Assembly (NCBI GenBank): GCA_016278285.1
Contig: JADQCD010000127.1
Coordinates: 1 to 52,555 of the forward strand
DNA: 52,555 nt
Origin: Actibacterium sp.
Lineage (GTDB): Bacteria > Pseudomonadota > Alphaproteobacteria > Rhodobacterales > Rhodobacteraceae
Direction: 5' to 3'
The notes beneath the pieces are model-generated. The model was not told the origin of the DNA, searched no databases, and worked only from the letters and a program-made list of their open reading frames with translations. Below are positions 26,465-44,948 of this stretch, in pieces. The translations under genes were made by a program, and so were the position numbers. Position 1 is the first letter of the stretch. The number at the start of each line of letters is the position of its first letter.

Positions 26465-27496
26465 TCAAACGATCTCGGGCAGGATCAGCCGGGGAGCCAG
26501 GAAGTGCTGCCCGATCGTCCCATCGGAGGCTTCGTCCTGCGCATGCAACATCAACTGGACCACTTCTGTGCACAATTCACGCAACGGGGTGGACACCACC
26601 ATCCGAACATAACCGTCGAGCAGCCCGGCACGGCTTTCGGTAGTTACCTCGTTGACCACCAACGCCACCTCCTCGGGGGCACGAACCTCTCGCAGGGCGG
26701 CGATGGCGCCTTCCATGCCGCCGCCGGCGACATAGATGCCGGAAAGATCGGGGTGCCGCGTCAGCAGGTCCAGCGTCGCCTCGTAGGTCAGTTGCCGCGT
26801 CTCGAGGTTCACCAGTGTATCGAGCACGGTGAAGGCGGGCGCGTTTTCCCGCATGAAGGCGCGGAACCCGACCTCGCGCAGGTCGTGCCCGTGCCAGCGG
26901 TTGCCCCCCACGAAGATCGCCACCTTCCCAGGTGTGGAACAGGTGCGGGTAATCGTCCACGCCGCCTGGCGACCGACTTTCATGTTGTTCAATCCGATGT
27001 AATTGCGCCGGATTCCCTGGGCGAAATCATTAAGCAGCGAAAACGTCGGAACCCCGGCGTCCTGCAGGTCCTGCACCACCTGGTCGAGCATTCGGTGGTT
27101 GACGGCGATCGCGGCCAGAGCATCGACCTGGCCACCGACATCGCGCAGTAACTGCGCGATTTCTCCAGGCGATTGCGACTGTGCGAACCGGATCACGGCC
27201 GTCGCGCGCACATCGCAGCGCGCAGCCGTCGCGGCCTCGATCTCGCGGCGAAAATTGCGATAGAATTCCTGCTTTTCCTTCAGCTGAACAAACCCCAGCC
27301 GGACCTCGGGCACACTGAGATCCAGCCGTTGATCGAACAACCCGCGCGCGTGATAGCCAATGCGGTGTGCTGCCTCGGCGATCTTGCGCATCGTCTCTTC
27401 GCGCACCGTGACACGACCGTTGAGCGCCCTGTCGACGGTGGACATGCTGACCCCCGCCTCGCGGGCGATATCCTTGATGGTGGCGCGGCGGGCCAT
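26465..27496 (-). CDS. LacI family transcriptional regulator (candidate inositol regulator)
   Basis: 343 aa. N-terminal HTH (ATIKDIAREAGVSMSTVDRALNG) plus a periplasmic-binding-like effector domain. Close paralog of 37101..38126. Confidence 0.9.
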   Translation of the reverse strand: MARRATIKDIAREAGVSMSTVDRALNGRVTVREETMRKIAEAAHRIGYHARGLFDQRLDLSVPEVRLGFVQLKEKQEFYRNFRREIEAATAARCDVRATAVIRFAQSQSPGEIAQLLRDVGGQVDALAAIAVNHRMLDQVVQDLQDAGVPTFSLLNDFAQGIRRNYIGLNNMKVGRQAAWTITRTCSTPGKVAIFVGGNRWHGHDLREVGFRAFMRENAPAFTVLDTLVNLETRQLTYEATLDLLTRHPDLSGIYVAGGGMEGAIAALREVRAPEEVALVVNEVTTESRAGLLDGYVRMVVSTPLRELCTEVVQLMLHAQDEASDGTIGQHFLAPRLILPEIV

Positions 27497-28748: not shown

Positions 28749-29912
28749 TCAGTCGCCGCGAAACATCGGCGGACGCGCGTCGACCCAGGCGCCCTCGGTC
28801 GCGCCGCTTTCAGCGACCGAGGCCACCGCCGCCATCGAGCGCAGGCCATCCTCGGCCCGGGGATAGAGGTCGGCGGCCGGATCCGTCTCGCGGCCCTCCT
28901 TGCGGGCGTGAATCGCCTCGGCCAGGTCGAGATAGATGTTGGCGAAAGCCAGCGGCATGCCTTCGGCATGTCCGATGGCGACGCGGGTGGTGCGATCGGC
29001 CGCGGGCGACAGGTTCGCCTCGCCCCGCTCGATCACTTGCCGTCGTCCGCCCAGCGGCATCCACGACAGCTGGTTGGGCTGTTCCTGCGCCCAGGCAAGC
29101 CCGCCCTTTTCGCCGAAAACCTGCAATGTCAACCCATGCTGGCGGCCCAATGCAATCGAAGAGGTCCACAGCCGGCCGACCGCGCCGCCATCGAAGCGCA
29201 GGTTGACCATGGCATCGTCTTCAAGCTGCCGGGTTTCGATACATGACACCGTGTCGGCGGACAGCCGGCTGACTTCCTGACCGATCACGAAGCTGGCCAT
29301 GTGCAGCGCGTGGATGCCGCAATCTGCGAACTGCGCAGATACGCCGGCCTGCTGCGGATCATAGCGCCAGCGCACCCGCGGATTGTCGGCATCCGCCGCA
29401 TCGGCGTGGTGGCCATGCGCAAACTCGGCCTTGACCATGCGGATGCGGCCCAGATCGCCGCGCGCCACCATCGCGCGCATGTGCCGTACCAGGCTGTAAC
29501 CGGTATAACCATAATTCACCGCGCAGATGCGGCCCGTGGCGCGGGCGGTGGCCACGATATCCTCTCCCTCGGCCACGGTCATGGTCATCGGCTTTTCGCA
29601 CAACACATGAAAGCCGGCTTCAAGGAACGCCTTGGAAATCTCGTAATGTGTGAAATTGGGCGTGGCCACGGTAACAAGATCGACGCGGTCGTCGCGCGCC
29701 ACCTCGCCCGCCAGCATCTCGCGCCAATCACCATAGGCGCGATCCGCAGACAGGCCCAGCCGCTGCGCATAGGCGCGGCCGGCCTCGGGACGGTGATCCA
29801 GCGCGCCGGCGACGAACTCGAACTGTCCGTCCAGCCTCGCGCCCAGCCGGTGGGCCGGCCCGATCTGGCTGCCTTCGCCCCCGCCGATCATGCCCCAGCG
29901 AAGTTTCGTCAT
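28749..29912 (-). CDS. Gfo/Idh/MocA family oxidoreductase
   Basis: Real start at ATG 29912 (MTKLRWGMIGGGEGSQIGPAHR...CEKPMT...), 387 aa. Confidence 0.88.
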   Translation of the reverse strand: MTKLRWGMIGGGEGSQIGPAHRLGARLDGQFEFVAGALDHRPEAGRAYAQRLGLSADRAYGDWREMLAGEVARDDRVDLVTVATPNFTHYEISKAFLEAGFHVLCEKPMTMTVAEGEDIVATARATGRICAVNYGYTGYSLVRHMRAMVARGDLGRIRMVKAEFAHGHHADAADADNPRVRWRYDPQQAGVSAQFADCGIHALHMASFVIGQEVSRLSADTVSCIETRQLEDDAMVNLRFDGGAVGRLWTSSIALGRQHGLTLQVFGEKGGLAWAQEQPNQLSWMPLGGRRQVIERGEANLSPAADRTTRVAIGHAEGMPLAFANIYLDLAEAIHARKEGRETDPAADLYPRAEDGLRSMAAVASVAESGATEGAWVDARPPMFRGD

Positions 29913-29965
29913 GTCCTCGATCCTTTCCTGATCCTGCGGGGTAGTCCCGTTCCTGCCCGGTCGGC

Positions 29966-30856
29966 TCAGAACCCGATGCGCTCCAGATAAGCCCGGTTGG
30001 CCCGCGCATCGTCCAGCGGCGCCACGTCGAGCGTGGGGTCGCAATCCTGTTCGACAGTGCACCAGCCCGCGAAACCGGCTTGCATCAAGGCCTCGCGCAC
30101 CGCGGGGAAATCCACGTCACCCGCCCCCAGATTGCAGAAAATGCCCTGTCCGCAGGCGGTATAGAAATCGGTTCCGGCGGCAACGACCTGCGCCTTCACC
30201 TGCGGGTCGATATCCTTGAAGTGGACATAGCTGACACGGCTTCCCCAGCGCCTCAGGAACGCCACCGGATCATAGCCGGCATAAGAGTGATGGCCGGTGT
30301 CGAGGCATATCTTCAGCACGTCCGCATCGGTTTCGTTCAACAGGCGCTCCAGTTCGGGCTCGAAGTCGATGAACCCGCCGGCGTGGGCATGAATGCTGAC
30401 GGTCAGGCCATAGACCTCGGCGCCTGTGGACGCGATATAGGAAATGCGATCCCGGAAGGCGGCCCATTCGGCGGGTTGCATCTGCTCGGCTGCACTGGCG
30501 CGCCCAGCGGTCGGCGCCCGGCGCGACGAAATCGAATCGATCAGCACCAGATGACGCGCCCCGTGCGACACCAGCGACCGGCATGTCCGTTCGGCCGCTT
30601 CGACCACGTCCAGCCACTGGTCCGGGTCATGGAACGGGCGAAAGACGACACCGCCCGTCAGCGTCAGACCATTGGCGGCCAGCGCCTCGCCCAAGACCGC
30701 CGGATCCTCGGGCATGTACCCCACCGGACCCAGCTCGATCCCGCGATAGCCGGCGGCGGCGCATTCGGCCAGAACCTGCCGCCACGGCGGGTTGCGCGGA
30801 TCATCCGCGAATTCGACTCCCCAGGAACAGGGTGCGTTACCGATGCGAATGGTCAT
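29966..30856 (-). CDS. Xylose-isomerase-like TIM-barrel protein (IolE/MocC-like sugar phosphate isomerase/epimerase family)
   Basis: 296 aa: MTIRIGNAPCSWGVEF...GIELGP...HAHAGG...LDTGHH...VHFKD...EQD. It has the metal-binding pattern typical of this fold. Confidence 0.85.
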   Translation of the reverse strand: MTIRIGNAPCSWGVEFADDPRNPPWRQVLAECAAAGYRGIELGPVGYMPEDPAVLGEALAANGLTLTGGVVFRPFHDPDQWLDVVEAAERTCRSLVSHGARHLVLIDSISSRRAPTAGRASAAEQMQPAEWAAFRDRISYIASTGAEVYGLTVSIHAHAGGFIDFEPELERLLNETDADVLKICLDTGHHSYAGYDPVAFLRRWGSRVSYVHFKDIDPQVKAQVVAAGTDFYTACGQGIFCNLGAGDVDFPAVREALMQAGFAGWCTVEQDCDPTLDVAPLDDARANRAYLERIGF

Positions 30857-30867
30857 GGCATTCTCCC

Positions 30868-31971
30868 TCAGGCTGTCTCGACGGCGATCCAGCGCTTGTC
30901 CCCGGCCGATTTCATCGCCGCTTCGACCACCTGTGCCACGGCAAGGCCGTCGGCGAAGGTGGGCCAGACGGGCGCGCCGGTCTCGATCGCGGTCAGGAAA
31001 TCGCGCGCCTCGATGATGATCTGGTCCTGGTATCCGGTGCCGTGCCCGGCCCCCTGGCAGAAGGCGGCATAATCGGGATGCTCAGGCCCGATCAGGATCT
31101 TTCGAAAACCGCGTGTCGCCGCCGGGCCCGCGGCCTCGTACAGCCACAGCGCGTTCTGGTCTTCCTGGTCGAAGCGGATGGCACCGCGCGTGCCGAAGAT
31201 TTCGTAGGCATATCCCATCTTGCGGCCGGTCGCGATGCGGCTGGAATAGATGTGCCCCATCACGCCGCTCTCGAACCGGCACATGATCTGGGCGTGATCG
31301 TCGTTCGTCACGTTGCCGCCGGGGCGAGTCGCGTGGACGGTTTCGATATCGGCACAGACCCGGGCGATCGGCCCCATCAGCGCCAGCGCCGCGTTGATCG
31401 GGTGCGGGGCCAGGTCGCCCATGTTGCCGTTGGCCGCGCCGGAACATCGCCAGTCGTGCGGCGCGGCCGGATCGGACAGGAAATCCTCGGTGTGCTCGCC
31501 ACGATAAAAGGTGACGTCGCCAATTGCGCCCTCGGCCAACAGATGGCGGGCGAACTGGCTGGCGGGCGTTCGGATATAATTGAACCCGATCATGTTTGCC
31601 ACGCCGGCCGCCCCGGCCGCTGCAACCATGGCACGGGCGTCGGACAGCGTGTCGGCCAGCGGCTTTTCGCACAGCACGGGTTTGCCCAGGGCAAACGCCG
31701 CCTCGGCGATGGCGCGATGGGTTTCCTGCGGCGTGGCGATGACGACGGCCTGCACCTCGGGATCGGCGACCAGGGTCTGCCAGTCCGGCGCGGCCCGGCG
31801 AAACCCGAAGGACGCACGATAGCGTTCGGCGCTATGGGGGCTCGACGCCGCGACCATTTCAAGGCGGGGGCGCAGCGTGGTTTCGAACACCGCGCCCACG
31901 GCCGCAAAAGCCACCGCATGCGCCTTGCCCATATACCCGCCACCGACGATCCCGATACCGAGTTCTGCCAT
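30868..31971 (-). CDS. Gfo/Idh/MocA family oxidoreductase
   Basis: 367 aa: MAELGIGIVGGGYMGKAHAVAF...CEKPLA... Confidence 0.88.
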   Translation of the reverse strand: MAELGIGIVGGGYMGKAHAVAFAAVGAVFETTLRPRLEMVAASSPHSAERYRASFGFRRAAPDWQTLVADPEVQAVVIATPQETHRAIAEAAFALGKPVLCEKPLADTLSDARAMVAAAGAAGVANMIGFNYIRTPASQFARHLLAEGAIGDVTFYRGEHTEDFLSDPAAPHDWRCSGAANGNMGDLAPHPINAALALMGPIARVCADIETVHATRPGGNVTNDDHAQIMCRFESGVMGHIYSSRIATGRKMGYAYEIFGTRGAIRFDQEDQNALWLYEAAGPAATRGFRKILIGPEHPDYAAFCQGAGHGTGYQDQIIIEARDFLTAIETGAPVWPTFADGLAVAQVVEAAMKSAGDKRWIAVETA

Positions 31972-31996
31972 GATCCCCCCATCCGTTCAACGGACC

Positions 31997-32012
31997 TTGC
32001 AACCGGTTGCAA
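31997..32012. promoter_or_regulatory. Perfect 16-bp palindrome, candidate LacI-type operator
   Basis: TTGCAACCGGTTGCAA is fully self-complementary. It lies in the 93-bp divergent intergenic region, 26 bp from the oxidoreductase ATG and 53 bp from the iolC-like ATG. Confidence 0.5.
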
Positions 32013-32064
32013 AAGCCGTATCGTGAGCGGCGATGGGTCGCAACAGCAAATTGGTCACAACCGC

Positions 32065-33045
32065 ATGGCAAACCTTGGACAACTTGAGGGCGGATCGTTT
32101 CTGGTGATCGGACGGGCGGGTATGGACCTTTACGCCGATCCGCCTGGCACACGCCTGGAGGACGCCACGCAATTCACCGCCGCGCTTGGCGGATCGTCGG
32201 CCAATATCGCCGCGGGGCTGTGCCGGCAGGGATGCGACGCGGCGCTGGTCACGCGTGTCTCGGACGACGCGGTGGGCCGCTTCTGCCTGGCGCAGCTCGA
32301 TGCCTATGGGGTCGATCGGCGTTTTGTCGCGGTCGAGGGCGGCGAGGCGCGCAACTCCCTGGCCATTGTCGAGACGCGGGCGACCGACACGCAGGCAGTG
32401 CTGTATCGCCACCGGGCCGCTGATTTCGAGATGGTCGAAGCGGACGTGACGGCCCTGTCCTATCACGCGTATTCGGCACTGATCACCACTGGCACAGTGC
32501 TGGCCGCCCAGCCGTCGCGCGATGCCTGTTTCGCGGCGTTCGACCAGGCCTGCGCCGCAGGCCTGCCGCTTGTTTTCGACGTCGATTACCGGCCTTATTC
32601 TTGGACGTCGCAAGAAGAGGCGGCCGAGGTCTATGCCCGCGCCGCGGCGCTGTGCGACATCGTGATCGGCAACGACGTGGAATTCGGCGTGATGGCCGGA
32701 GATCACGACGCCGGCCTCGAAACCGCACGCGCGCTTGTTGCCGGCGGCGCCCGCGTCGTTGTCTACAAGATGGGCGAGAAAGGGGCGGTCACGATCACGC
32801 CCGAGGGCGAGATGCGCACCGGCATCTACCGCTCGCAGGCGATCAAGCCGACCGGCGCGGGCGACGGCTTCATGGCCGGTTTTCTGGCCGGCCTCGCTGA
32901 CGGCCACGACGTGGCCGAGGCAGTCGCGCGCGGTTCGGCCGCTGCGGCGCTGGTGGTGTCGCGCGTCGGCTGCGCCCCGGCCATGCCCACGGCGGCCGAG
33001 ATCGACCGTTTCCGCGCCACTACCGAAATGACACCCCCCGCTTAG
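32065..33045 (+). CDS. PfkB family sugar kinase, IolC-like (5-dehydro-2-deoxygluconokinase candidate)
   Basis: Real start at ATG 32065 (MANLGQLEGGSFLVIGRAGMDLYADPPG...; PTGAGDGFMAG), 326 aa. The upstream 490 aa of ORF 30583..33045 are antisense to other genes. Confidence 0.85.
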   Translation: MANLGQLEGGSFLVIGRAGMDLYADPPGTRLEDATQFTAALGGSSANIAAGLCRQGCDAALVTRVSDDAVGRFCLAQLDAYGVDRRFVAVEGGEARNSLAIVETRATDTQAVLYRHRAADFEMVEADVTALSYHAYSALITTGTVLAAQPSRDACFAAFDQACAAGLPLVFDVDYRPYSWTSQEEAAEVYARAAALCDIVIGNDVEFGVMAGDHDAGLETARALVAGGARVVVYKMGEKGAVTITPEGEMRTGIYRSQAIKPTGAGDGFMAGFLAGLADGHDVAEAVARGSAAAALVVSRVGCAPAMPTAAEIDRFRATTEMTPPA

Positions 33046-33054
33046 GAGGCGACC

Positions 33055-33909
33055 ATGCATATTCTCCCCCATGACAACGCCAATCGCCCGATCGTCGATG
33101 TCGATAACGACCGGGTGCCGCTGAACTATTTCAACATAGTCAAGCTGAAGGCCGGCGAGCATTTCGATTATCGGGTCGATGGCTACGAGACCTGCGTGGT
33201 GCCCGCCACCGGCACCGTCACCGTCGAGGTCGGCGACCAGACCTTCGCCGATATCGGCCAGCGCCGCACCGACGTCTGGGACGGCGATCCCGAGGGCGTC
33301 TATGTCCCCAGCGGACAGGGCGCGCGCATCACCGCGCGCACCGATACCGAAACCTTCGTCGCCGGCGCGAAATACGCCGACACGCTGACGCCCTTCGCCG
33401 TGCGCGCGGACGACCTGGACCTGGTGCAATACGGCTCGGACGACACCAAGACACACCGCAAGATCAAGCACATCCTGGGCGCGGAACATCACGACCGGGT
33501 CGGTCGGCTGCTGGTCAGCGAGTTGTTCACCGTTGGCGCCGGCGGCTGGTCGGGCTTTCCCAGCCACAAGCACGACACCGACCGGCTGGACAGCGACGCC
33601 GAGGTGATCGAGACGCGCCACGACGAGACCTACAATTTCCGGTTCAAACCGGACTATGGATCGGGGCTCCAAATGCTGCAACGCACCGACAACGAACCCG
33701 GCGATGCGTATCACGTCATGAACGGCTCGACCGTGCTGATCGACAAGGGGTATCATCCCTGCTGCGTCCTGCCCGGCTACGAGATGTATTATTTCACCAT
33801 CCTCGGCGGACGGTCGCAGCGGTCGCTGAAACAGTATTTTCAGCCCACCCACGCCGAACAGTTGCACACCATCCCCGGCATCATGGACATGGTGGCCAAG
33901 TTCAAATGA
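33055..33909 (+). CDS. IolB-like cupin (5-deoxy-glucuronate isomerase family), divergent second copy
   Basis: 284 aa: ..WSGFPSHKHDTD...ETYNFR...IDKGYHPCCVLPGYEMYYFTILGG. It shares the IolB signature but differs strongly from the 14430..15242 copy. Confidence 0.85.
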   Translation: MHILPHDNANRPIVDVDNDRVPLNYFNIVKLKAGEHFDYRVDGYETCVVPATGTVTVEVGDQTFADIGQRRTDVWDGDPEGVYVPSGQGARITARTDTETFVAGAKYADTLTPFAVRADDLDLVQYGSDDTKTHRKIKHILGAEHHDRVGRLLVSELFTVGAGGWSGFPSHKHDTDRLDSDAEVIETRHDETYNFRFKPDYGSGLQMLQRTDNEPGDAYHVMNGSTVLIDKGYHPCCVLPGYEMYYFTILGGRSQRSLKQYFQPTHAEQLHTIPGIMDMVAKFK

Positions 33910-34739
33910 CCCGCGCGACCCTGGCCGAGGTTCTGGCGCCCGCCCTGCGCGACGGCCATGCCGTGGCCGGGCTGGTCTGTCAGGGGTGGGAGGACGCGCG
34001 CGCCTATGTCGCGGCCGCCGAGGCCGAAGCCGCCCCGGTGATCCTACAGGTTGGCCCCGGCGCCCGGGCGCACATGCCGCTGACCGTCTGGGCGGCGATG
34101 CTGGCCGAATTGGCCGGGGCAGCCAGCGTCCCGGTGGTGCTGCATCTCGACCACGGCACCAGCGCCGAAGACTGCCGGGCCGCCATCGACCTCGGCTTCA
34201 CTTCGGTGATGTTCGACGGCTCGGCCCTGCCGCTTGAGGACAACATCGCCCAGACCCGCCAGGTGGCTGCCATGGCAAGGGACGCGGGCGTTTCCTGCGA
34301 GGGCGAGATCGGCATCGTCGGCTATGCCGGCGGAGCCAGGACAGAGGGAACCGACCCGGACGAAGCGGCGCGCTTTGCCGCCGAAACGAGCATCGACGCC
34401 ATGGCCGTGTCCGTCGGCAACGTGCATCTGCAACAGACACGGCAGGCCAGAATCGACCACGACCGGCTGAGCGCGATCGCCGAACGCACCGGCGTGCCGC
34501 TGGTGATCCACGGCGGATCCGGTCTGTCGCACGACATGCGCCGCACGCTGGCGCGGACCAGCCCGGTATGCAAGTTCAACATCGGCACCGAGTTGCGAAT
34601 ATGCTTTGGCCGGGCCTTGCGCGATACGCTGACGGACGATCCGGCGCTATTCGACCGAATCGCCATTCTTTCGGCGACCGAACCGGTGCTGACCGACACC
34701 GCCCGCAGGATCATCGCCGGGCTGCGCCACCCGACCTAG
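33906..34739 (+). CDS. Class II (metal-dependent) ketose-bisphosphate aldolase family, IolJ-like
   Basis: 277 aa: ...VVLHLDHG...MFDGS...GEIG...VGNVHL...IHGGSG... (FbaA/IolJ/KbaY family motifs). ATGA overlap with the iolB-like stop. Confidence 0.85.
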   Translation: MTRATLAEVLAPALRDGHAVAGLVCQGWEDARAYVAAAEAEAAPVILQVGPGARAHMPLTVWAAMLAELAGAASVPVVLHLDHGTSAEDCRAAIDLGFTSVMFDGSALPLEDNIAQTRQVAAMARDAGVSCEGEIGIVGYAGGARTEGTDPDEAARFAAETSIDAMAVSVGNVHLQQTRQARIDHDRLSAIAERTGVPLVIHGGSGLSHDMRRTLARTSPVCKFNIGTELRICFGRALRDTLTDDPALFDRIAILSATEPVLTDTARRIIAGLRHPT

Positions 34740-35542
34740 CGTGGGTCGAGCCCGTCCAGGAAGGCGTCGAACGCCGCGTCTTCGATCGGGACCGCGTGGT
34801 CGCACGCGGGATAGGCCCCGCTGGCTACATCGGCGACGAATTCCGAAAACGCCGCCGTGCGTTCCTGATGCAGCCGCGCGAATTCAGTGGCAAAATCGCG
34901 ATAGACCTTGGCGTGACGCGGCGCGCGCGTCCGCCCATAGCCCAGCAGATCCTCGGTGAACAGATACTGCGCATCCGTATGCGGCCCGGCGCCCATCCCC
35001 AGAAGCAACAACCCGCTGTTGCGCGCGACAACCTCGGCAACGCGGTCGGGGACGACCTCGATTTCGGCCCCGAAACACCCGATCTGCTCCAGGCGCGTGA
35101 CGTGATCCCACACCTCGCGGGCGCTGGCGGCGGTCTTGCCCACCGCCTTGAACCCGCCGGTCCAGGTCGCCTGCGAGGGGATCAACCCGACATGGCCGAC
35201 CACCGGAATCGCATTGTCACCCAACAGTTTCTGGATATCGAGCGCGGCCGCACAGTATACGCAATCGCCACCATTTTGCATCGCGGCATGGGCCGCGCGC
35301 AAGTAATCTCCGGCGGTGCAAAGCTCGCCATACAGCAGACCGATCTGCACGAAACACGACCCCGCCGCCGCGCGCATCGCCGGGCTCCAGCGCGGCGCGG
35401 CGATCGACAGCATATCGACACCGGCGGCGGCGGCGGCGCAGGCCTCGTCCTCGGTTTCGACATAGACCATGGTCAGTTTCTCACCCCGCGCCTTGCGCGC
35501 GCGCAAGTCGGCAACGGTGGGGCGCCCGACCGTTTCTGGCAT
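34736..35542 (-). CDS. PanB (3-methyl-2-oxobutanoate hydroxymethyltransferase) family protein, divergent
   Basis: Real start at ATG 35542 (MPETVGRPTVADLRARKARGEKLTMVY...IPVVGHVGLIPSQATWTGGFKAVGK...LLLLGMGAGPHTDAQYL...), 268 aa. The overall PanB layout is recognisable. I could not recognise the canonical GDS(L)GM segment (it reads DMLSIAAPRW here). Confidence 0.75.
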   Translation of the reverse strand: MPETVGRPTVADLRARKARGEKLTMVYVETEDEACAAAAAGVDMLSIAAPRWSPAMRAAAGSCFVQIGLLYGELCTAGDYLRAAHAAMQNGGDCVYCAAALDIQKLLGDNAIPVVGHVGLIPSQATWTGGFKAVGKTAASAREVWDHVTRLEQIGCFGAEIEVVPDRVAEVVARNSGLLLLGMGAGPHTDAQYLFTEDLLGYGRTRAPRHAKVYRDFATEFARLHQERTAAFSEFVADVASGAYPACDHAVPIEDAAFDAFLDGLDPR

Positions 35543-35544
35543 TC

Positions 35545-35853
35545 TTAGACCTCCACCAGGACACGGCCGCCGTCGACCTTCGTCGGATAGGTCGCCAGGT
35601 TGACGCAGGCCGGGGCGCGCTTGGCCTCGCCGGTGCGGTAATCGAAGGTGGCGTTGTGCTTGGGGCACTCGATCTCGTAATCCATCACCAAACCGTCCGC
35701 CAGATGGACCTGTTCGTGGGTGCAAAGCCCGTCTGTGCAGAAAAAGTCGCCATCGGGACTGTGATAAATGGCGAAGGTCCGGCCGTCGTGATCGAAGCGA
35801 ACCAGATCCTCTTGCTCGATCTCGTCGGTGGCGCAGGCGTCGATCCAGGGCAT
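35545..35853 (-). CDS. Rieske [2Fe-2S] ferredoxin (MocE-like)
   Basis: 102 aa with CTH...CPKH cluster ligands. ATG at 35853 is preceded by AAGGAGGA at 5-nt spacing. An alternative ATG at 35880 overlaps the upstream stop (ATGA). Confidence 0.85.
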   Translation of the reverse strand: MPWIDACATDEIEQEDLVRFDHDGRTFAIYHSPDGDFFCTDGLCTHEQVHLADGLVMDYEIECPKHNATFDYRTGEAKRAPACVNLATYPTKVDGGRVLVEV

Positions 35854-35876
35854 GTCATCCTCCTTTTGGATAGTGG

Positions 35877-36959
35877 TCATTCGGCGGGCACGCCCACCGG
35901 GACGGTCGCGTGCAGATCCGCGCGATAGGGTTTGGCGGTGTCCGGCAGGGTGCGCTTGATGAAATGATCCTCGTCGCGCAACTGGCGGACCAGGGCGGGC
36001 CACATCTCGGCGAAGGCCTCGGGGATGGACCGGTTGGGCGCCGGCAGGTCATGCTTGATCGCCTCATGCAACTGGGGAAGCCGATGATAGGGCACCATCG
36101 GAAACATGTGATGTTCGACGTGGTAATTCATGTTCCAATAGATGAAGCGGCTGATCGGGTTCATCAGGACGGTGCGCGAATTCAACCGGTGATCGGTGAC
36201 ATTCTCGGCCAGCCCTCCGTGCTGCAACACCCCCGTCATGACATGGTGCCACGCGCCATAGAGCCGCGGCAGCCCTATCAACATCAGCGGCAGGATCGAG
36301 TTCAGAGCAAACGCCATCGCGATCACCGTGGCATAAATCGCCACCCAGATGCGGGCCACGCGGATCACCTTGGGCTGCTCGGGCCTGGGCACGAAATCCG
36401 CCTCGTCCGGCGTCAGCCGCCCGGTCGCATTGGTCAGCATGCGGCCTATGGCGGTCCAGGCGTCCACCAGACCGAAGAAATTGGCTATTACTCGTGCCAG
36501 CGCCGGCGGCCGCATCAGCACCACCTCGGGGTCGCGCCCGACGATAACCGTGTCGGTGTGGTGGCGGGCATGGGACCAGCGCCAGGTATGCGGGTTACGC
36601 ATCATGCAGAAGCTGGCGATCTGGTACAGCCAGTCGTTGTAGGAACGGGTCTTGAAGGCCGTGCCGTGACCGCATTCGTGCCAGCGCGAATCCATCGCCG
36701 AGCCGTAAAGCACCCCGTAGCCAAGCCAGAACGGCACCGACCACAGCGTGGGCCACAGAACGATCCCGAACCCTGCCAGCACGATCATCGAGGCGAACAG
36801 GATGGCGGTGTCTCGGATCGCCGGGCCGTTCGTTCGTTTCATCAGATCCTTCATCGTCTTGCGCGGCAGGTCGGTGTGATACCAGTCCGCCGCGGCCAGC
36901 CCGGTCTGCACAGCCCACGCGGAGTCGGGGCCGGTCATCGAATAGTCACGCTGGGTCAT
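35877..36959 (-). CDS. Membrane fatty-acid desaturase/hydrocarbon oxygenase family di-iron protein (MocD-like)
   Basis: 360 aa with three histidine boxes (HECGH, HARHH, NYHVEHH) and hydrophobic segments between them. Confidence 0.85.
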   Translation of the reverse strand: MTQRDYSMTGPDSAWAVQTGLAAADWYHTDLPRKTMKDLMKRTNGPAIRDTAILFASMIVLAGFGIVLWPTLWSVPFWLGYGVLYGSAMDSRWHECGHGTAFKTRSYNDWLYQIASFCMMRNPHTWRWSHARHHTDTVIVGRDPEVVLMRPPALARVIANFFGLVDAWTAIGRMLTNATGRLTPDEADFVPRPEQPKVIRVARIWVAIYATVIAMAFALNSILPLMLIGLPRLYGAWHHVMTGVLQHGGLAENVTDHRLNSRTVLMNPISRFIYWNMNYHVEHHMFPMVPYHRLPQLHEAIKHDLPAPNRSIPEAFAEMWPALVRQLRDEDHFIKRTLPDTAKPYRADLHATVPVGVPAE

Positions 36960-37100
36960 GGCTTTCTCCCGGATCGTCTGAGCGTTTCCGTCAATCTACC
37001 CGCGCAAACGACCGGGGCGTGAGAGCCGGGCTTGCTTTTCAATCAAAATCCATCAGAATCTCAGCGTCTTTGTTGATGTTTTCCGATCAAGGACCAGCCG

Positions 37101-38126
37101 ATGGCCAAGCGCCCCACCCTGCAGGACCTGGCCCGGGAGGCCGGCGTGGGCATCGCCACCGTCGACCGCGTTGTGCACGGCCGACCTCATGTCAGCGTGC
37201 AAACGGCGGACCGGGTGGCCGCCGCAGCCGAACGGATAGGCTATCACGTCGGTGGGCGCATCGCAGCGCGGCACGGCCCCGCGCCGCGACGCATCCGGCT
37301 GGGGATCGTCCTGCACAAGCAGGCGCAGCCGTTCTATCGCGCCTTTGCCTCCGCGCTTGAAGTTGCGGTGGCTCGCATTGACGCACGCGTCGATTCGCGC
37401 ATCGTCTATGCCCCCTCGCAATCGCCCGAGGATTTTGCCGCAGCCTTGCGCGAAGTGGCCGAGGACGCGGATGCCATCGCTGGTTCGGCGGTCAACCACA
37501 CCGCCGTGGACACGGCAGTGCGCGAATTGACCGCCGCCGGTCTGCCGGTCTTCGCGCTGCTCAACGATTTCGCCCAAGGCGCGCGGACGGCGTATTTCGG
37601 CCTCGATAACATGCGTGTCGGGCGCATCGCCGGATGGATGCTGGCCACCTTGATCCGGCAACCCGGAAACGTCGCGGTTTTCGTGGGCGGCAATCGCTGG
37701 CACGGGCATGTCCTGCGTGAGATGGGCTTTCGCGCCTGCCTGCGCGAGCGGGCGAGCACGCTTCAAGTTCTGGAGACGAAGGTCAACCTTGAGACGCGGC
37801 AGGTCACTTACGAGGCGACGCTGGACCTGTTGGATCGTGTCCCCGACCTGCGCGGTCTTTACGTCGCGGGCGGCGGCATGGAGGGTGCGATCGGGGCGCT
37901 GCGCGAGACCCGTCCGCCCGGCCGAGTGATGCTGGTCGTGAACGAACTGACGCCCGATAGCCGCGCGGCGTTAGCCGACGGTTATGCTGTGCTGGCAATC
38001 GCCACCCCGCTCGAGGCTCTGTCCCGGAGTCTTGTCGCAGCGATGCTGAGCGCCGCCAAAGGCCAGCCCCCTACGACGGATCGCCACATCTTTGAGCCGC
38101 AGCTGTATCTGCCGGAGTCGGTCTGA
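37101..38126 (+). CDS. LacI family transcriptional regulator (paralog of 26465..27496)
   Basis: 341 aa. HTH PTLQDLAREAGVGIATVDRVVHG. Shares long identical stretches with the other regulator (VAIFVGGNRWHGH, VNLETRQ.TYEATLDLL, YVAGGGMEGAI.ALRE). Confidence 0.9.
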   Translation: MAKRPTLQDLAREAGVGIATVDRVVHGRPHVSVQTADRVAAAAERIGYHVGGRIAARHGPAPRRIRLGIVLHKQAQPFYRAFASALEVAVARIDARVDSRIVYAPSQSPEDFAAALREVAEDADAIAGSAVNHTAVDTAVRELTAAGLPVFALLNDFAQGARTAYFGLDNMRVGRIAGWMLATLIRQPGNVAVFVGGNRWHGHVLREMGFRACLRERASTLQVLETKVNLETRQVTYEATLDLLDRVPDLRGLYVAGGGMEGAIGALRETRPPGRVMLVVNELTPDSRAALADGYAVLAIATPLEALSRSLVAAMLSAAKGQPPTTDRHIFEPQLYLPESV

Positions 38127-38509: not shown

Positions 38510-39538
38510 CTATTCGAAGGTCTTGAGATAGGCGATCACGGCGTCGCGATCGGCCGCGTCGCTCAGGCCGCGGAAGGCCATTCGCGTGCGGCTGACATAG
38601 TCGCGCGGGTTTTCCAGGAAGGCGTGCAGCGCCTCTTCGTCCCAGACCTGCCCCTCTTCGCCCATCGCGGCCATCGCGTTCGAATAGCGAAAACCGTCTA
38701 CCGTGCCGATGGTCCGGCCCACGACACCGTTCAACTGCGGGCCCACCCGGTTCTTGGCGCCCTCGCCGACCATGTGACAGGCCTTGCACTGGCGGAACAC
38801 GTCTTCGCCCGCAGCGACCAGTTCAGGGTCCGGACTGGCAGGCGCGGCCGGTTCCGGCGCGGCCGAAGCGTCCTGCTGTTCCTCGGCGGCCTCCTCGTCG
38901 GTCTGCGTGCCCGGCGTCACGTCCAGAACCGAGGCATGCATGGTGATCTCGACACTGTCCTTGCAATTTTCCATGCAGGGTTCCTTGACGAATTTCGGAA
39001 ACTCCACCTCTTCGCGGTTGTCCACGATGAACCCGTCGGCATTCGGCATCTCGACATCCAGGAAATTCTCGTTCGAAAGAACGAAGTCGCTGTCCACCAG
39101 GAAGTTGGAATAAAGGATGTAGGCCGTGATTGCATAGGTCTCGTCGACGGTCAGCGTCTGCGCGTTGCCGAACGGCATAGAGCGGTGAACATAGTCCCAG
39201 GCCGTCGACAGGTAGGGCCAGTAAGAACCGACCGTCTTGACCGGGTCGCGGCGGTCGAGCGTGCCCATCCCGCCGGCAAGTTTCGGCCAGCGGCCGACCC
39301 CTTCGGCAAATTCGCCATGGCACGCCGCGCATTTCTCGACGAACAGGGTTTCCCCTTCGCTCACCGAACCCGACCCGGCGGGCAGTCCGGTGCCGTCGGG
39401 ACTGACATCCAGGTTCCATGCGGCGATTTCTTCGGGCGTGGCGGGACGTCCCAGGCCATATTCCTGGGCCATCGCCGGGCCGGCCACCAGTGCAGAGGCC
39501 AGCGCAGCACCGATCACCAGGTTACGATACTTCGACAT
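38510..39538 (-). CDS. soxD: Sulfane dehydrogenase diheme cytochrome c subunit
   Basis: Real start at ATG 39538 (MSKYRNLVIGAALASALVAGPAMA signal peptide). Two CxxCH motifs (CAACH, CKACH). Overlaps the soxC end by 17 nt. Confidence 0.9.
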   Translation of the reverse strand: MSKYRNLVIGAALASALVAGPAMAQEYGLGRPATPEEIAAWNLDVSPDGTGLPAGSGSVSEGETLFVEKCAACHGEFAEGVGRWPKLAGGMGTLDRRDPVKTVGSYWPYLSTAWDYVHRSMPFGNAQTLTVDETYAITAYILYSNFLVDSDFVLSNENFLDVEMPNADGFIVDNREEVEFPKFVKEPCMENCKDSVEITMHASVLDVTPGTQTDEEAAEEQQDASAAPEPAAPASPDPELVAAGEDVFRQCKACHMVGEGAKNRVGPQLNGVVGRTIGTVDGFRYSNAMAAMGEEGQVWDEEALHAFLENPRDYVSRTRMAFRGLSDAADRDAVIAYLKTFE

Positions 39539-40799
39539 TCTCGGCCTCCCCGTTCGGCTTGACCCACCAGGTCTGGATGCCGTTGTTGTGGTAGATGGAA
39601 TTTTCGCCCCGGATCGCGCGCAGCGCATCCTTGGTCGGCTGGACATAGCCCAGGCTGTCCATGGCACGACTTTGCAGCAGCATTTCAGATCCGTCCCAGT
39701 CGATCTCCAGGTAGAACCGGCTGACCGCCTTGTTCTGCCCGGGCGCGGCAAGGCGCGCGGTCTGCCAGTTCTTGCCGCCGTCGATCGAGACATCGACCCG
39801 CTCGATGGCACCGCGGCCCGACCAGGCCAGCCCTGTGATAACCAGCGGACCGGCGCCGTGGGTGATCGGTGACTGCGGGCTGGGCGAGGTAATGATCGAT
39901 TTCGCGTCCATCTCCCAGGTCCATTTGCGCGAGGTTCCGTCGGCCAGCGTGTCGGTGTATTTGCTGGTCTCTTCGCGGCTTTCCACGGGGCCGTCCATCA
40001 CCTCGACGCGGCGCAGCCATTTGACCCACATGTTGCCTTCCCAACCGGGAACGACCAGGCGCACGGGATAGCCATGTTCCTTGCGCAGCGCCTCGCCATT
40101 GGCCTTGAAGGCCACCAACACGTCGTCGAGTGCCTTGTCCATCGGGATCGACCGGCCGTTCGACGAAGCATCGGCACCCTCGACATAGATCCACTTCCCG
40201 CTCAAATCACCGGCGGCATCCAGTCCGGCCTCTTCCAGCAGGGTGCGCAGAGGCACGCCGGAATATTCCATGTTGTGGATCATGCCGTGCGTGAACTGCG
40301 CGCCGTTCAACTGCGCCCCGGCCCATTCCATCCCGCTATTGGCGGCGCATTCGCAGAAATAGACGTGGTTTTCGCGCGGGAACCGCTCCAGGTCGGCATA
40401 GGTGAAGACCAGCGGCCGGTCGACCAGGCCGTTGATCATCAGCCGGTAATCTTCCTTCCGCAGCTCGATCGCGCCCGAATGGTGCCGTTCGAAGGCGCAA
40501 CCCTGCGGGGTGATCGTCCCGTCCAGCGCGTGGATTGGCGTGAAATTGACCGAGCTCAGGGTCTCGGCCGTGAGCCAAGGCACGTTGCGCCGGATCACGT
40601 CGTCCTCGAACTTGATTGGCAGGCCATAGGGCACGGCATCGACCCCAACGCCGGTATAGCGCGCCCAGGGCTGAACCTCGGTGATAAGCGGATCGCCCGC
40701 GGCACGGGCCGCCCCGGCCGTGGCAACTGTGCCCCCCGCGGCGAGCCCTGCTTGCAGAAAGCCGCGCCGGGTGGTCGAGGATCCTGACTGATCTGTCAT
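39522..40799 (-). CDS. soxC: Sulfane dehydrogenase molybdopterin subunit
   Basis: Tat signal TRRGFLQAGLAAGG and a sulfite-oxidase-family Moco domain. Lies between soxB and soxD. Confidence 0.93.
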   Translation of the reverse strand: MTDQSGSSTTRRGFLQAGLAAGGTVATAGAARAAGDPLITEVQPWARYTGVGVDAVPYGLPIKFEDDVIRRNVPWLTAETLSSVNFTPIHALDGTITPQGCAFERHHSGAIELRKEDYRLMINGLVDRPLVFTYADLERFPRENHVYFCECAANSGMEWAGAQLNGAQFTHGMIHNMEYSGVPLRTLLEEAGLDAAGDLSGKWIYVEGADASSNGRSIPMDKALDDVLVAFKANGEALRKEHGYPVRLVVPGWEGNMWVKWLRRVEVMDGPVESREETSKYTDTLADGTSRKWTWEMDAKSIITSPSPQSPITHGAGPLVITGLAWSGRGAIERVDVSIDGGKNWQTARLAAPGQNKAVSRFYLEIDWDGSEMLLQSRAMDSLGYVQPTKDALRAIRGENSIYHNNGIQTWWVKPNGEAENVEVS

Positions 40800-40867
40800 A
40801 TCTGCAACCTCCTCAAAAGATGCATCACTTTATATTCGCATCTCAGAATATGTAAATCGGATTTCGT

Positions 40868-42559
40868 TCACGCACCCGTGACCTTGACCGATTTGTTCGG
40901 ATCGACCTGAACGGTGCCCTGCTGCTTGATGTAGCTTTCCACCACATCCCATATGGCCGGCCCCTCGGTGCCTTCATTGACCGAGGCCCAGCCGGCCACG
41001 ACATAGCTGCGCTCTGGCGCGATCGGTTCGCCGGTCTTCAGCAGGGTCATGCCGCTGATGCGGTTGCCCCGCTCCGCGCGCACGTCGATATGATAGCCCA
41101 TGCCGCCAACACGAACCATGTCCCCGCCCTGCTGATAATAGGGGTCGGGGTGGAACAGGTTGTCGGCCACATCTTCGAGGATCGTCTTCAGCGTCTCGCC
41201 GGTCATCTCGGAGCGATAGGCCTCCGGATAGGTCATTGCCGTGGCGTTGAACAGATCCTCGCGGGTGATCGGCTCGCCCGGCAACAGGCTTGGCCCCCAA
41301 CGGAAACCGGGCGACAAGGCGATCTCGGCCTCGCGCTCGTCGATAAGCGCGTTGCAGATCAGATCGTCCCATGTGCCGTTGAAATTGCCGCGCCGATACA
41401 ACAGGGTGTCGGTGGTCCCCAGCACCTCGTCCAGCTCGGCCTGGAACGGTGCGCGCTGCTTCTCGATCAGCGCGGCCACATTCTTGTCAGGCTCGATCAC
41501 GTCGGAAAAGATCGGGATCAGCTTATGCCGGAATCCCATCAACTGCCCGTCCCGGACGTCCAGATCAAGCCGCGTGACGAATTTGCCGTTCGAGCCGCTG
41601 GCGATCAGCATCGTGTCGCCCACCATGACCGGCTCGGGCAGAGCGTCATGGGTGTGGCCGGTCAGGATCACGTCGATCCCCTTGATCTGCCCGGCCATCT
41701 TGCGATCCACGTCAAAGCCGTTATGCGACAGAACCACCACCAGGTCGGCGCCCGCGTCGCGCACCTCCTGCACCAATTCGGCCATCCGTTCGTCACGGAT
41801 GCCAAAGCTGAGTTCGGGGAACATCCAGTCGGGATTGGCGATCGGCAGATACGGGAAGGCCTGACCGATCACCGCGATCTTCGCACCGCCCCGCTCGAAC
41901 ATCTTGTAGGGCTCATAGGCGGGTTCGTCCCAGGTCGCGTCGAAGATATTGGCGCCCAGGAAAGGGAAGTCGAGCCCGGCCACGATCTCGTTCACCCGCT
42001 CGGTGCCCAGGGTAAACTCCCAGTGCGACGTCATCGCGTCGGGTTTCAGGGCGTCCATGACGTTGACCATGTCCTGCCCGGCCGTCTTGAGCGTGGTGTA
42101 GGAGCCGTGCCAGGTATCGCCGCCGTCCAGCAGCAGCGCATCCGGTCGGTCGGCGCGGATCGCGTTCAACACGGTGGCCACCCGGTCCAACCCGCCCATC
42201 TTGCCATAACTGCGCGCCAGCGCGACAAAATCCAGGTAGGTCAGCGCATAGGCATGGGGCGTGCCCGGCTTCATGTCGTAATAGTTCAGAAACTCCTGCC
42301 CCGTCAGGTGCGGTGGCTGCCCCCGCGCCGCACCGACGCCGATATTGATCTCCGGCTCGCGGAACCATATCGGCTTCAGCTGGCCGTGAATGTCGGTTAC
42401 ATGAACCAGGGTCACGTTGCCGAACGTGTCGAAGTCAAGCAGTTGATCCTGGGTCAATGCCTGCTGGGCCGCCAGTTTCGACCAGTTGCCAACACCCGAA
42501 GCGCCATAGATGGCCGAGGCCGCGACCGTCGCCTGAAGAAAATCTCGCCGCGATATCAT
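40868..42559 (-). CDS. soxB: Thiosulfohydrolase (dimanganese 5'-nucleotidase-like)
   Basis: 563 aa. Tat signal MISRRDFLQATVAASA and metallophosphoesterase motifs (VHVTDIHGQ, GGDTWHG, GHTH). Confidence 0.95.
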   Translation of the reverse strand: MISRRDFLQATVAASAIYGASGVGNWSKLAAQQALTQDQLLDFDTFGNVTLVHVTDIHGQLKPIWFREPEINIGVGAARGQPPHLTGQEFLNYYDMKPGTPHAYALTYLDFVALARSYGKMGGLDRVATVLNAIRADRPDALLLDGGDTWHGSYTTLKTAGQDMVNVMDALKPDAMTSHWEFTLGTERVNEIVAGLDFPFLGANIFDATWDEPAYEPYKMFERGGAKIAVIGQAFPYLPIANPDWMFPELSFGIRDERMAELVQEVRDAGADLVVVLSHNGFDVDRKMAGQIKGIDVILTGHTHDALPEPVMVGDTMLIASGSNGKFVTRLDLDVRDGQLMGFRHKLIPIFSDVIEPDKNVAALIEKQRAPFQAELDEVLGTTDTLLYRRGNFNGTWDDLICNALIDEREAEIALSPGFRWGPSLLPGEPITREDLFNATAMTYPEAYRSEMTGETLKTILEDVADNLFHPDPYYQQGGDMVRVGGMGYHIDVRAERGNRISGMTLLKTGEPIAPERSYVVAGWASVNEGTEGPAIWDVVESYIKQQGTVQVDPNKSVKVTGA

Positions 42560-42640
42560 GTTCGTCGTCTCCGTTCAGGATGCACCGCGCCGAGCGGCGA
42601 ATGCAGGGCATCGGCCGATCGGCACGCTTTGGGGTAAAGG

Positions 42641-42682
42641 AACAAACGAATGAAAACCGCGCGCCGGCAATCCGGCGCGCGG
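42641..42682 (-). terminator. Canonical intrinsic terminator or attenuator between soxA and soxB
   Basis: On the coding (minus) strand: CCGCGCGCCGG-ATTG-CCGGCGCGCGG, a perfect 11-bp stem, followed directly by TTTTCATTCGTTTGTT. It begins 8 nt after the soxA stop. Confidence 0.55.
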
Positions 42683-42689
42683 CGGTCGA

Positions 42690-43550
42690 TCAGTTGCGCA
42701 CCGACGGCGCCTCGACATCGAGCCCGTTGCCGCGCGAGGCGACGTAAAGCTCCAGCGCCACGAATTCGGGCGAACCGGGCTTGTAGGTCTCCGCCCGGGT
42801 ATCCCGCACACAGCCCTTGAACCGCGAATGCACCGCATTGAGTTTGGCGTTCTTCAGACGATAGACCGGAAAGCCGTTGATCTGGCCCTGGCTGAGATGA
42901 TCCGCCCGGATCATGTCGCCGTAATGATCCTCGTGACAATTGGCGCAGCTCAGTTCCAGCTGACCGGTCCGGGTATAGTAGAGCTCCTTGCCCTTTTCCC
43001 AGGTCGACTGCGCCGGACCATCGATCGCCACATCCACCGGCATCCCCCGCGACTGAAGCGAGATCAGTGCAACCATGCTGGTCATCCCCGTGTCGGTATA
43101 GCCCCAAGCCTCGGCGCCCATGCGGTCGGTGCGGCAATCATTGATCTGCATTTCGAGAGTACGCACTTCCTGCGCATCCTCGTTCCATTTCGGATAGACC
43201 GCACGCACGCCCTTCATGCTGTCCGCCGGGTCGTCATGACACGAGGCGCAGGACTTGCCCTCGGTGCCATCGACCGTGTTCCAGACCTGCCGCGCCTTGT
43301 CGACGAAGATCATGCCCGGATTGTCGAAATCGTCCATCTGGACCGCACGGGTCGTGGGCGAGCGGAATTCCCACCCCGAATAGATCGTGTCGAGCGCACC
43401 CTCCAGATGGGCCGGCGCGGGCGCTTCGGTGATGATTTCGGTTTCACCGTTGATCACAAGCTTCTCGTCCGTCTGCCCCGCGGCCGCGCCGGCGCCAAGC
43501 GTCAGCATCGCCGCGGTGCAGATCATCGTCTTGAGCGACGTCGTTTTCAT
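42690..43550 (-). CDS. soxA: Diheme cytochrome c SoxA
   Basis: Signal peptide and two CxxCH motifs (CASCH, CANCH). Position is between soxZ and soxB. Confidence 0.93.
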   Translation of the reverse strand: MKTTSLKTMICTAAMLTLGAGAAAGQTDEKLVINGETEIITEAPAPAHLEGALDTIYSGWEFRSPTTRAVQMDDFDNPGMIFVDKARQVWNTVDGTEGKSCASCHDDPADSMKGVRAVYPKWNEDAQEVRTLEMQINDCRTDRMGAEAWGYTDTGMTSMVALISLQSRGMPVDVAIDGPAQSTWEKGKELYYTRTGQLELSCANCHEDHYGDMIRADHLSQGQINGFPVYRLKNAKLNAVHSRFKGCVRDTRAETYKPGSPEFVALELYVASRGNGLDVEAPSVRN

Positions 43551-43579
43551 GTCATTCCTCCCTGAATGCGACCCGGCAA

Positions 43580-43909: not shown

Positions 43910-43927
43910 TTCTTCTTACTCCTCTGA

Positions 43928-44344: not shown

Positions 44345-44380
44345 TTCTCTCTCCTTGTCTGAAAGCGACCCGAAGCGGGG

Positions 44381-44863: not shown

Positions 44864-44920
44864 TAGTGTCTCCTCCCGCTCCTTTTTCGTTTTCCGAACC
44901 TATCTCAGGTATCCCGCCGC

Positions 44921-44948
44921 ATGCAACAACAAATCTATTTTTCTGCAT
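44921..44948. promoter_or_regulatory. AT-rich candidate SoxR operator in the soxW-soxX intergenic region
   Basis: ATGCAACAACAAATCTATTTTTCTGCAT has ATGCA/TGCAT ends and shares AACAA...ATTTTTCT-like elements with the soxV-soxS intergenic region (46371..46404). Confidence 0.35.

Follow-up and report, generated by a model that had tools for sequence, protein, structure and literature searches.

The contig JADQCD010000127.1 of Actibacterium sp. (assembly GCA_016278285.1), whose 52,555 nucleotides are referred to below as the window, carries on its minus strand a three-gene operon for a membrane di-iron oxygenase, a Rieske ferredoxin and a protein related to ketopantoate hydroxymethyltransferase (PanB). 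The interpretation that we favour, with a probability of about 0.55, is that this triad is a LacI-controlled demethylase of the MocD/MocE family, active on an O-methyl-cyclitol of the pinitol kind, which would feed the inositol (iol) pathway while the PanB-derived protein passes the one-carbon (C1) unit to tetrahydrofolate (THF). A wider proposal is tentative, and we hold it at less than even odds: the PanB-like protein may found a family derived from ketopantoate hydroxymethyltransferase that captures formaldehyde or hydroxymethyl groups in a THF-dependent manner. Membrane O-demethylases that use O2, from no fewer than three lineages of oxygenase, would by this means be coupled, physically or kinetically, to the C1 pool of folate.

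The oxygenase (360 amino acids, 35877-36959), the ferredoxin (102 amino acids, 35545-35853) and the PanB-like protein (268 amino acids, 34736-35542) are encoded by co-directional open reading frames on the minus strand, with gaps of 23 nt and 2 nt between them; AAGGAGGA is found 5 nt 5' of the ferredoxin ATG. The His boxes of the oxygenase, HECGH (position 94), HARHH (130) and HVEHH (280), are invariant across 14 homologs, and the ferredoxin shows the Rieske ligands C44-x-H46 and C63-x-x-H66. An earlier description of this DNA, made from its letters alone and called here the sequence-only reading, had reported the same gene order, gaps, sizes of the two smaller proteins, His boxes and Rieske motif, and all were recovered when the reading frames were read again. 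The PanB-like gene and a convergent class II aldolase gene on the plus strand both end on a palindromic CTAG (34736-34739); their stop codons overlap by 2 nt and the genes by 4 nt, an overlap that leaves no space for a terminator between the convergent operons.

Family assignment of the first two proteins was made with Pfam and NCBIfam profiles. The oxygenase matches PF00487 (FA_desaturase, 5e-34) and the ferredoxin PF00355 (Rieske, 1e-19); the latter also passes the cutoff of TIGR02377 (MocE_fam) with 171.3 bits against 136.15. The oxygenase lies far under the cutoff of every NCBIfam lipid-desaturase equivalog (38 bits against 500), with GntB as a weak match, and a sequence search of the PDB gave no match at E <= 1. 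Its relatives number in the thousands. The nearest share 72-77% identity with it, are spread over many Rhodobacterales genera and carry no annotation other than 'fatty acid desaturase family protein', while 248 plasmid records, mostly from Rhizobium and Sinorhizobium, hold a copy at 60-80% identity. As reference for orthology we used the MocD of Phyllobacterium zundukense Tri-48, encoded in a MocR-mocB-mocA-linked locus. The window oxygenase is 68% identical to this protein, which together with the TIGR02377 result upholds the MocD/MocE-type identity put forward in the sequence-only reading. Between the MocR-linked Phyllobacterium protein and a LacI-linked protein of S. meliloti pSymB the identity is 88%, indicating one orthologous group that has been adopted by different regulators. 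Judged by these identities, the window oxygenase belongs to a single conserved orthologous group that extends across Rhodobacterales and rhizobia. We propose that it is the methyl-group hydroxylase of a methylated cyclitol, and that the Rieske ferredoxin is its electron donor.

The closest known systems are the rhizopine loci with mocD, mocE and mocF of S. meliloti L5-30 and R. leguminosarum, for which a genetic model of demethylation was put forward by Bahar et al. 1998, as cited in PMC10107442. In these bacteria, mocDEF is needed for catabolism of 3-O-methyl-scyllo-inosamine and is induced by rhizopine (PMC10107442). The window shares with them the succession of a membrane His-box oxygenase and a MocE-family Rieske ferredoxin, as well as a nearby MocB-like binding protein, MocA-family dehydrogenases and MocC-family TIM barrels. 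It differs in that no MocF is encoded in the operon or elsewhere in the window (the best hit of Rhizobium MocF in a tblastn search of the whole 52.5 kb had E = 1.6, confirming the absence noted from sequence), and in that LacI-family regulators take the place of MocR, a regulator of the GntR/aminotransferase type of which no homolog was detected in the window. The operon thus lacks the reductase component of a MocDEF three-component system, and the window lacks the MocR regulator of a rhizopine (moc) locus. Moreover, evidence of inosamine-specific steps is missing from the window, and the host is a member of Rhodobacterales, not a rhizobium.

A closer parallel is found in rhizobia that do not use rhizopine, where mocDEF homologs are linked to LacI (S. 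meliloti 1021 SM_b20817-20820; FixV-homolog/Msi119 neighbourhoods; PMC3538637 and PMC11387232). The window has the same divergent LacI gene, an adjacent TIM barrel of the AP_endonuc_2 family and orthologous oxygenase and ferredoxin genes, whereas the rhizobial operons normally keep the reductase. Downstream PanB-like, purU and folD genes receive no mention in the available text of either article. The sequence-only reading knew of no characterised system with this three-gene composition, an impression that requires qualification: the arrangement is common in genomes, and a 2013 article on rhizobia had already pointed out LacI (FixV-homolog) genes divergent from mocDEF, accompanied by a TIM barrel of pfam01261, and read them as serving catabolism of an inositol derivative (PMC3538637). 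Homologs of mocDEF were also up-regulated by a Mimosa exudate, in which pinitol is the main component (PMC5789663). Our literature searches found no functional study of SM_b20817-20820, of a pinitol catabolic pathway or demethylase, or of PanB paralogs. A 2018 MSc thesis (Kennedy-Mendez) is said to deal with pinitol catabolism in S. meliloti.

To place the triad among its relatives, one genome per species was scanned, which gave at least 586 oxygenase relatives. Eighty loci were kept and compared by tblastn with the window proteins and with reference MocF, PurU and MocR; the 59 with enough flanking DNA were counted. The Rieske ferredoxin gene is directly downstream of the oxygenase gene in 56 of these loci (95%), and 53 (90%) have a LacI gene in divergent orientation. 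MocF reductase is found in 40 (68%), a TIM barrel of the type seen at 25 kb in the window and lying beside the LacI gene in 39, a MocB-like sugar ATP-binding cassette (ABC) transporter in 38-39 (about 65% for barrel and transporter alike), and an IolG-like dehydrogenase in 29 (49%). A PanB-like gene lies downstream of the oxygenase in 33 loci (56%) and anywhere in the locus in 35, while PurU occurs in seven, every one of which also has the PanB-like gene. The survey shows co-conservation with cyclitol transport and catabolic genes rather than lipid genes, and the homologs recovered did not point to lipid or carotenoid substrates; neither of the computational results that would have undone the sequence-only reading was thus obtained. 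Across bacteria, at least several hundred species have a genome with a locus of this type, and they range from rhizobia to Rhodobacterales of marine and soda-lake habitats.

When the genes for oxygenase, ferredoxin, reductase and PanB-like protein are abbreviated D, E, F and P, the operon architectures among the 59 loci are D-E-F-P (23 loci), D-E-F (17), D-E-P (9) and D-E (7). The window is a reductase-less D-E-P variant, a form common in Rhodobacterales. The sequence-only reading had described the PanB-like gene as sitting where a reductase would be expected. This view has to be abandoned, as the order in relatives is oxygenase, Rieske ferredoxin, reductase, PanB-like gene; the co-occurrence of the last two in 23 loci also rules out that one replaces the other. 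The PanB-like gene is a conserved fourth gene after D-E-F and no stand-in for the reductase.

Individual loci illustrate these patterns. Three or four Salibaculum-type contigs repeat the whole layout of the window, and in a Marivivens plasmid the window-type triad is joined to LacI, TIM barrel, ABC transporter, iolG, iolC and iolD. The order in R. leguminosarum is TIM barrel, LacI and, divergently, oxygenase, MocE, flavin adenine dinucleotide (FAD) oxidoreductase and 'PanB'. In P. zundukense Tri-48, a MocA-family dehydrogenase, a binding protein and a regulator of the MocR type (pyridoxal phosphate (PLP)-aminotransferase family) are followed by oxygenase, MocE, FAD oxidoreductase, 'PanB', purU and an unannotated folD. 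The S. meliloti pSymB locus consists of LacI, oxygenase, MocE and reductase genes; these are SM_b20817-20820, named mocDEF in strain 1021 (PMC11387232).

The PanB-like protein matches PF02548 (Pantoate_transf) with 1e-35, the match covering only profile positions 81-258, the C-terminal two-thirds. It fails the PanB equivalogs TIGR00222 (83.8 against a cutoff of 207.55) and PRK00311 (107.3 against 272). When aligned with E. coli PanB, it shows a 20-residue deletion adjoining the G-D45-S46 motif, and D45 and S46 are replaced by A48 and A49, D84 by an invariant glycine (G68), K112 by tyrosine (Y96) and E114 by A98, a position occupied by Ala or Ser in the family. These five PanB residues, the Mg2+/ketopantoate ligands of the E. 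coli enzyme, are kept in no member of the PanB-like family. Retained from PanB are H136, E181 and the GxGAG and DxQ motifs, and new invariant residues have appeared (Y80-L81-R82, D93, Y96-C97, T126-W127-T128 and R209-H210). Relatives of the protein keep 60-77% identity across phyla, including one in a Caldilineaceae (Chloroflexota) genome.

An AlphaFold (AF2) model of the protein is a (beta/alpha)8 barrel with a predicted local distance difference test (pLDDT) score of 82 and a predicted template modelling (pTM) score of 0.83; low confidence is confined to loops 121-132 and 202-214, both highly conserved. In a comparison with the PDB, the top 28 matches were all PanB, mostly with template modelling (TM) scores of 0.70-0.79 (best 0.75-0.79) and with 22-26% identity. 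The PanB proteins of E. coli (1M3U) and M. tuberculosis (1OY0) share with it the fold, at TM 0.75-0.79, and the motifs GH(V/L)GL(I/T)P, E(V/C)VP and G(M/I)GAG; 5,10-methylene-THF is the presumed common cofactor. Differences from PanB include, besides the deletion and the replaced ligands, a catabolic rather than panCD context. Sequence and model together indicate that the protein has the PanB fold, yet is no PanB.

Gene context argues in the same direction. The PanB-like gene stands in a catabolic operon with oxygenase and ferredoxin both in the window and in the 33 related loci counted above, and the annotated neighbours included no panC, panD or panE gene in any locus that we inspected. In four loci, RefSeq proteins of this family bear the name '3-methyl-2-oxobutanoate hydroxymethyltransferase' and the Gene Ontology (GO) term for pantothenate biosynthesis, assigned by the Prokaryotic Genome Annotation Pipeline (PGAP); this naming is probably a systematic misannotation. 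If automatic annotation were taken at face value, with its Pfam family names and the PGAP labels 'fatty acid desaturase family protein' and '3-methyl-2-oxobutanoate hydroxymethyltransferase', the triad would be a housekeeping set made of a lipid desaturase, its ferredoxin and a true PanB for pantothenate synthesis. Such an interpretation is effectively excluded by scores far under every NCBIfam desaturase and PanB equivalog cutoff, by the loss of the PanB metal and substrate ligands, and by the consistent presence of the genes inside LacI, sugar-ABC and iol contexts. In one Rhodobacterales metagenome-assembled genome (MAG; L026, positions 11411 and 13345), an IolG-like gene lies between two PanB-like paralogs, which share 48% and 62% identity with the window protein.

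A metagenome scan centred on the PanB-like protein gave 80 further loci, of which the 33 with at least 3.5 kb of upstream sequence were counted. A membrane di-iron oxygenase is encoded in 29 of them and belongs to one of three types: the MocD type (20 loci), a PF04116 FA_hydroxylase of about 338 amino acids with HRLIH, HSVHH and HYLHH boxes (7), and a FADS protein 29% identical to the window oxygenase, as found in Caldilineaceae (2). A MocE-like Rieske ferredoxin is present in 27, and TIM-barrel and IolG-like genes usually adjoin the PanB-like gene. The FA_hydroxylase-type and Caldilineaceae-type partners rule out that the PanB-like gene is bound to one specific oxygenase. The alternative operon, with FA_hydroxylase in place of the MocD-type oxygenase, is exemplified by L145 (2560-3576) and recurs in five other loci; operons of this kind retain the MocE-like Rieske, TIM-barrel, PanB-like, IolG-like dehydrogenase, purU, folD and MocF genes. 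In a Caldilineaceae MAG (L089, 8720-10810), a PanB-like protein 67% identical to that of the window is encoded beside a FADS 29% identical to the window oxygenase, and no Rieske gene was called nearby; this locus suggests that the PanB-like gene has spread horizontally, independently of the oxygenase.

A link with folate metabolism emerges from the genes that follow. purU lies directly after the PanB-like gene in eight loci, and folD comes after purU in four. PurU acts as an irreversible sink in which 10-formyl-THF is turned back into THF, and its presence together with FolD implies that the operon generates methylene-THF. The PanB-like protein is the sole member of a folate-using family in the purU/folD operons. 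The suggestion made in the sequence-only reading that the PanB-like enzyme might handle the released C1 unit has hence gained real comparative support. This linkage also bears on the idea that the oxygenase is a ring or side-chain hydroxylase that would convert, for instance, a deoxy-inositol (quercitol, viburnitol) into inositol. Membrane His-box enzymes do hydroxylate unactivated C-H bonds, GntB is among the NCBIfam matches, and no biochemical assay of any MocD is known; however, purU and folD in related operons imply one-carbon release, and mocDEF is specifically required for the methylated rhizopine in the literature model. Taken together, we consider simple hydroxylation very unlikely.

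What the analysis shows is the gene layout, the family assignments, the shared neighbourhoods, the missing catalytic residues of PanB and the link to purU and folD; substrate, demethylation chemistry and THF coupling are inferences. The sequence of events that we favour can be outlined as follows. A methylated cyclitol would be imported by the nearby MocB-like ABC transporter. The substrate would most likely be an O-methyl-inositol such as D-pinitol or ononitol, with a rhizopine-like O-methyl-inosamine as the less likely option; the fact that the host belongs to Rhodobacterales and is not a rhizobium makes an O-methyl-inositol the probable choice. Electrons would flow from an NAD(P)H:ferredoxin reductase whose gene lies elsewhere in the genome to the MocE-type ferredoxin and from there to the membrane di-iron oxygenase, which would hydroxylate the methyl group. 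The resulting hemiacetal would collapse into the free cyclitol and a C1 unit at the formaldehyde level. The PanB-like protein, having kept the barrel and lost the Mg2+/alpha-keto-acid site, may couple this unit to THF as 5,10-methylene-THF, which in related operons would then be oxidised to formate by FolD and PurU. IolG-type dehydrogenases and a TIM-barrel isomerase would then lead the demethylated cyclitol into the iol pathway encoded next to the triad. Were the substrate of the D-chiro type, as pinitol is, the conserved TIM barrel could be understood as a putative inosose isomerase analogous to IolI. The published work cited above agrees with this scheme, though in an indirect way.

Known folate-linked demethylation modules offer a precedent. 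Sarcosine and dimethylglycine oxidase operons contain purU and folD, and LigM-MetF-LigH of Sphingobium is a comparable case. The demethylase is clustered with purU and folD, the methyl-derived C1 unit is oxidised on THF to formate, and the demethylase itself binds THF. The system described here would differ in that the oxygenase is an O2-dependent membrane enzyme and THF would be reached through a second protein, derived from PanB. Fae of methylotrophs, which condenses formaldehyde with tetrahydromethanopterin, would have the same role as that proposed for the PanB-like protein, namely loading formaldehyde onto a pterin C1 carrier, with an unrelated fold and a different carrier. We know of no dedicated, THF-specific counterpart of Fae, the place that the PanB-like protein would take under the wider proposal.

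Several observations weigh against the demethylase interpretation or against the part that it gives to the PanB-like protein. Hemiacetals lose formaldehyde spontaneously, and formaldehyde and THF condense without an enzyme, so that an enzyme is not strictly required. The PanB-like gene is absent from 41-44% of related loci and must be dispensable or replaceable there. Adjacency of purU and folD is seen in only about 12% of the genome loci, which are phylogenetically non-independent, and the reductase, purU and folD are all absent from the window. Among the 33 loci centred on the PanB-like gene, four have no nearby oxygenase, and four isolated copies have unrelated neighbour genes. That the PanB-like protein retains a folate site is a presumption. 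Lastly, our literature searches retrieved no enzymology of MocD, and the only support cited for mocDEF is the genetic model.

The frequent absence of the PanB-like gene admits another explanation. The oxygenase might demethylate its substrate while the role of the PanB-like protein is unrelated to C1 transfer (enolisation or epimerisation of a keto-cyclitol, or service as a non-catalytic partner of the oxygenase), the C1 unit reaching THF spontaneously or being detoxified elsewhere. Loss of the canonical PanB catalytic residues fits this possibility, as does the constant proximity of TIM-barrel and dehydrogenase genes; in five loci, the PanB-like gene is even found in the transporter/IolG operon instead. 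Nevertheless, purU and folD directly follow the PanB-like gene in several lineages, the gene tracks oxygenases of three unrelated or distant types, and 60-77% identity across phyla argues for a constrained catalytic role. We regard a role outside C1 metabolism as rather unlikely.

A further alternative would give the PanB-like protein a chemistry closer to that of its ancestor, and would account for the need for an enzyme in the first place. The oxygenase could hydroxylate the C-methyl group of a C-methyl-inositol such as the algal compounds laminitol or mytilitol, a MocA/IolG-type dehydrogenase could make the adjacent ketone, and the PanB-like protein could run the PanB reaction in reverse, a retro-aldol step that would transfer the hydroxymethyl group to THF and leave an inosose. 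PanB chemistry is precisely a hydroxymethyl transfer between methylene-THF and a carbon beside a ketone, a dehydrogenase gene is directly beside the PanB-like gene in many loci, the purU-folD linkage would be accounted for, and the organism of the window is of the saline or marine Rhodobacterales type. However, the family reaches its highest abundance in rhizobia and in metagenomes of the rhizosphere, settings in which O-methyl-inositols prevail; the PanB-like gene also follows mocDEF in a MocR-type locus, for which the known substrate is an O-methyl compound; and the enolate-stabilising metal ligands of PanB have all been lost. C-demethylation is, in our opinion, quite unlikely, and demethylation of an O-methyl-cyclitol is preferred.

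Control of the operon is suggested by its divergent arrangement with a LacI-family gene (37101-38126, plus strand; PF00356 and PF13407), the product of which is likely the repressor of the oxygenase operon. The putative promoter/operator region between both genes (36960-37100, no strand assigned) was compared by eye with the equivalent region of related loci. A pattern shared by the window and 12-13 loci was found: CATCAA, about 17 nt, TTGATG-n-TTTTGA(T/G)G (TGATGG-ATTTTGATTG) and then GCAAG. An inverted-repeat search of 36940-37120 revealed no classical LacI palindrome, and only the TTGATG-type repeat pattern was seen. The conserved pattern is a candidate operator/promoter architecture that differs from the classical LacI palindrome.

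The triad is flanked in the window by genes for two MocA-family dehydrogenases, two AP_endonuc_2 TIM barrels, two IolB proteins, a short and a long IolC, IolG, a sugar ABC transporter and two LacI regulators. The transporter module, on the minus strand, begins with the second LacI-family gene (26465-27496); module and triad directly adjoin each other in several loci, among them those of Marivivens and Natronohydrobacter. The next gene encodes a TIM barrel (25477-26292; PF01261) of the Pfam family that includes IolI, IolE and MocC, in a position equivalent to that of the Msi119 homologs beside rhizobial mocDEF clusters. A PDB search with this protein gave only uncharacterised structural-genomics entries (4HGX, 2Q02), matches from which a label of IolI-type inosose isomerase is not supportable. 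The MocB-like periplasmic binding protein (24450-25397), 58% identical to its counterpart in the MocR-type locus of P. zundukense, precedes the permease (23284-24369) and the ATPase (22467-23270), all three recognised in the Pfam scan, as was the LacI protein. Last in the transporter operon, ahead of iolC-iolD-iolE-iolB, comes an IolG-like inositol dehydrogenase (21304-22311), 70% identical to an annotated Marivivens IolG.

The canonical iol cluster, with IolG, the long IolC, IolD, IolE and the second IolB, occupies 14430-22311 on the minus strand. Inside it, between the IolB and IolE-like genes, there is a gene for a 393 amino acid PhyH-family protein (phytanoyl-CoA dioxygenase-like, Fe/2-oxoglutarate; 15436-16617, minus strand). 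Between triad and transporter module, a second, partial iol-like set (28749-34739) copies most of the canonical cluster except IolD. It consists of a MocA-family dehydrogenase, an IolE-like TIM barrel and another MocA-family dehydrogenase on the minus strand (28749-31971), and of a short PfkB kinase, IolB and the class II aldolase on the plus strand (32065-34739), convergent with the triad operon. A partial set of this kind is also kept beside the oxygenase in six other loci. Past the divergent LacI gene, beyond 38.3 kb, lies an unrelated sulfur-oxidation block (38510-48424) with genes for a cytochrome c, a SorA-like molybdopterin oxidoreductase, a SoxB-like protein of the 5'-nucleotidase family, a SoxA-type cytochrome and a sulphur-transport protein.

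Legumes, conifers and halophytes hold pinitol, ononitol and related methylated inositols among their most abundant soluble carbon compounds. No bacterial enzyme that demethylates them has been biochemically defined in the literature that we searched, and the locus type described here offers a concrete candidate for this reaction. Within a family already known, the oxygenase/ferredoxin pair is a new member, and its LacI-linked form had been noticed before; the reductase-less arrangement and the PanB-derived accessory protein with its folate-C1 linkage appear to be undescribed. Promoters and regulators of the mocDE type already serve as parts for synthetic plant-to-microbe signalling, so that LacI-controlled relatives with a different ligand would be useful. 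Should the PanB-like protein indeed charge THF with formaldehyde released by the oxygenase, it would close a gap and explain how O2-dependent demethylases escape formaldehyde toxicity. Its current annotation as a pantothenate enzyme looks wrong and would mislead metabolic reconstructions. What these observations chiefly provide is a hypothesis on the PanB-like family that lends itself to sharp tests, together with the correction of a widespread annotation.

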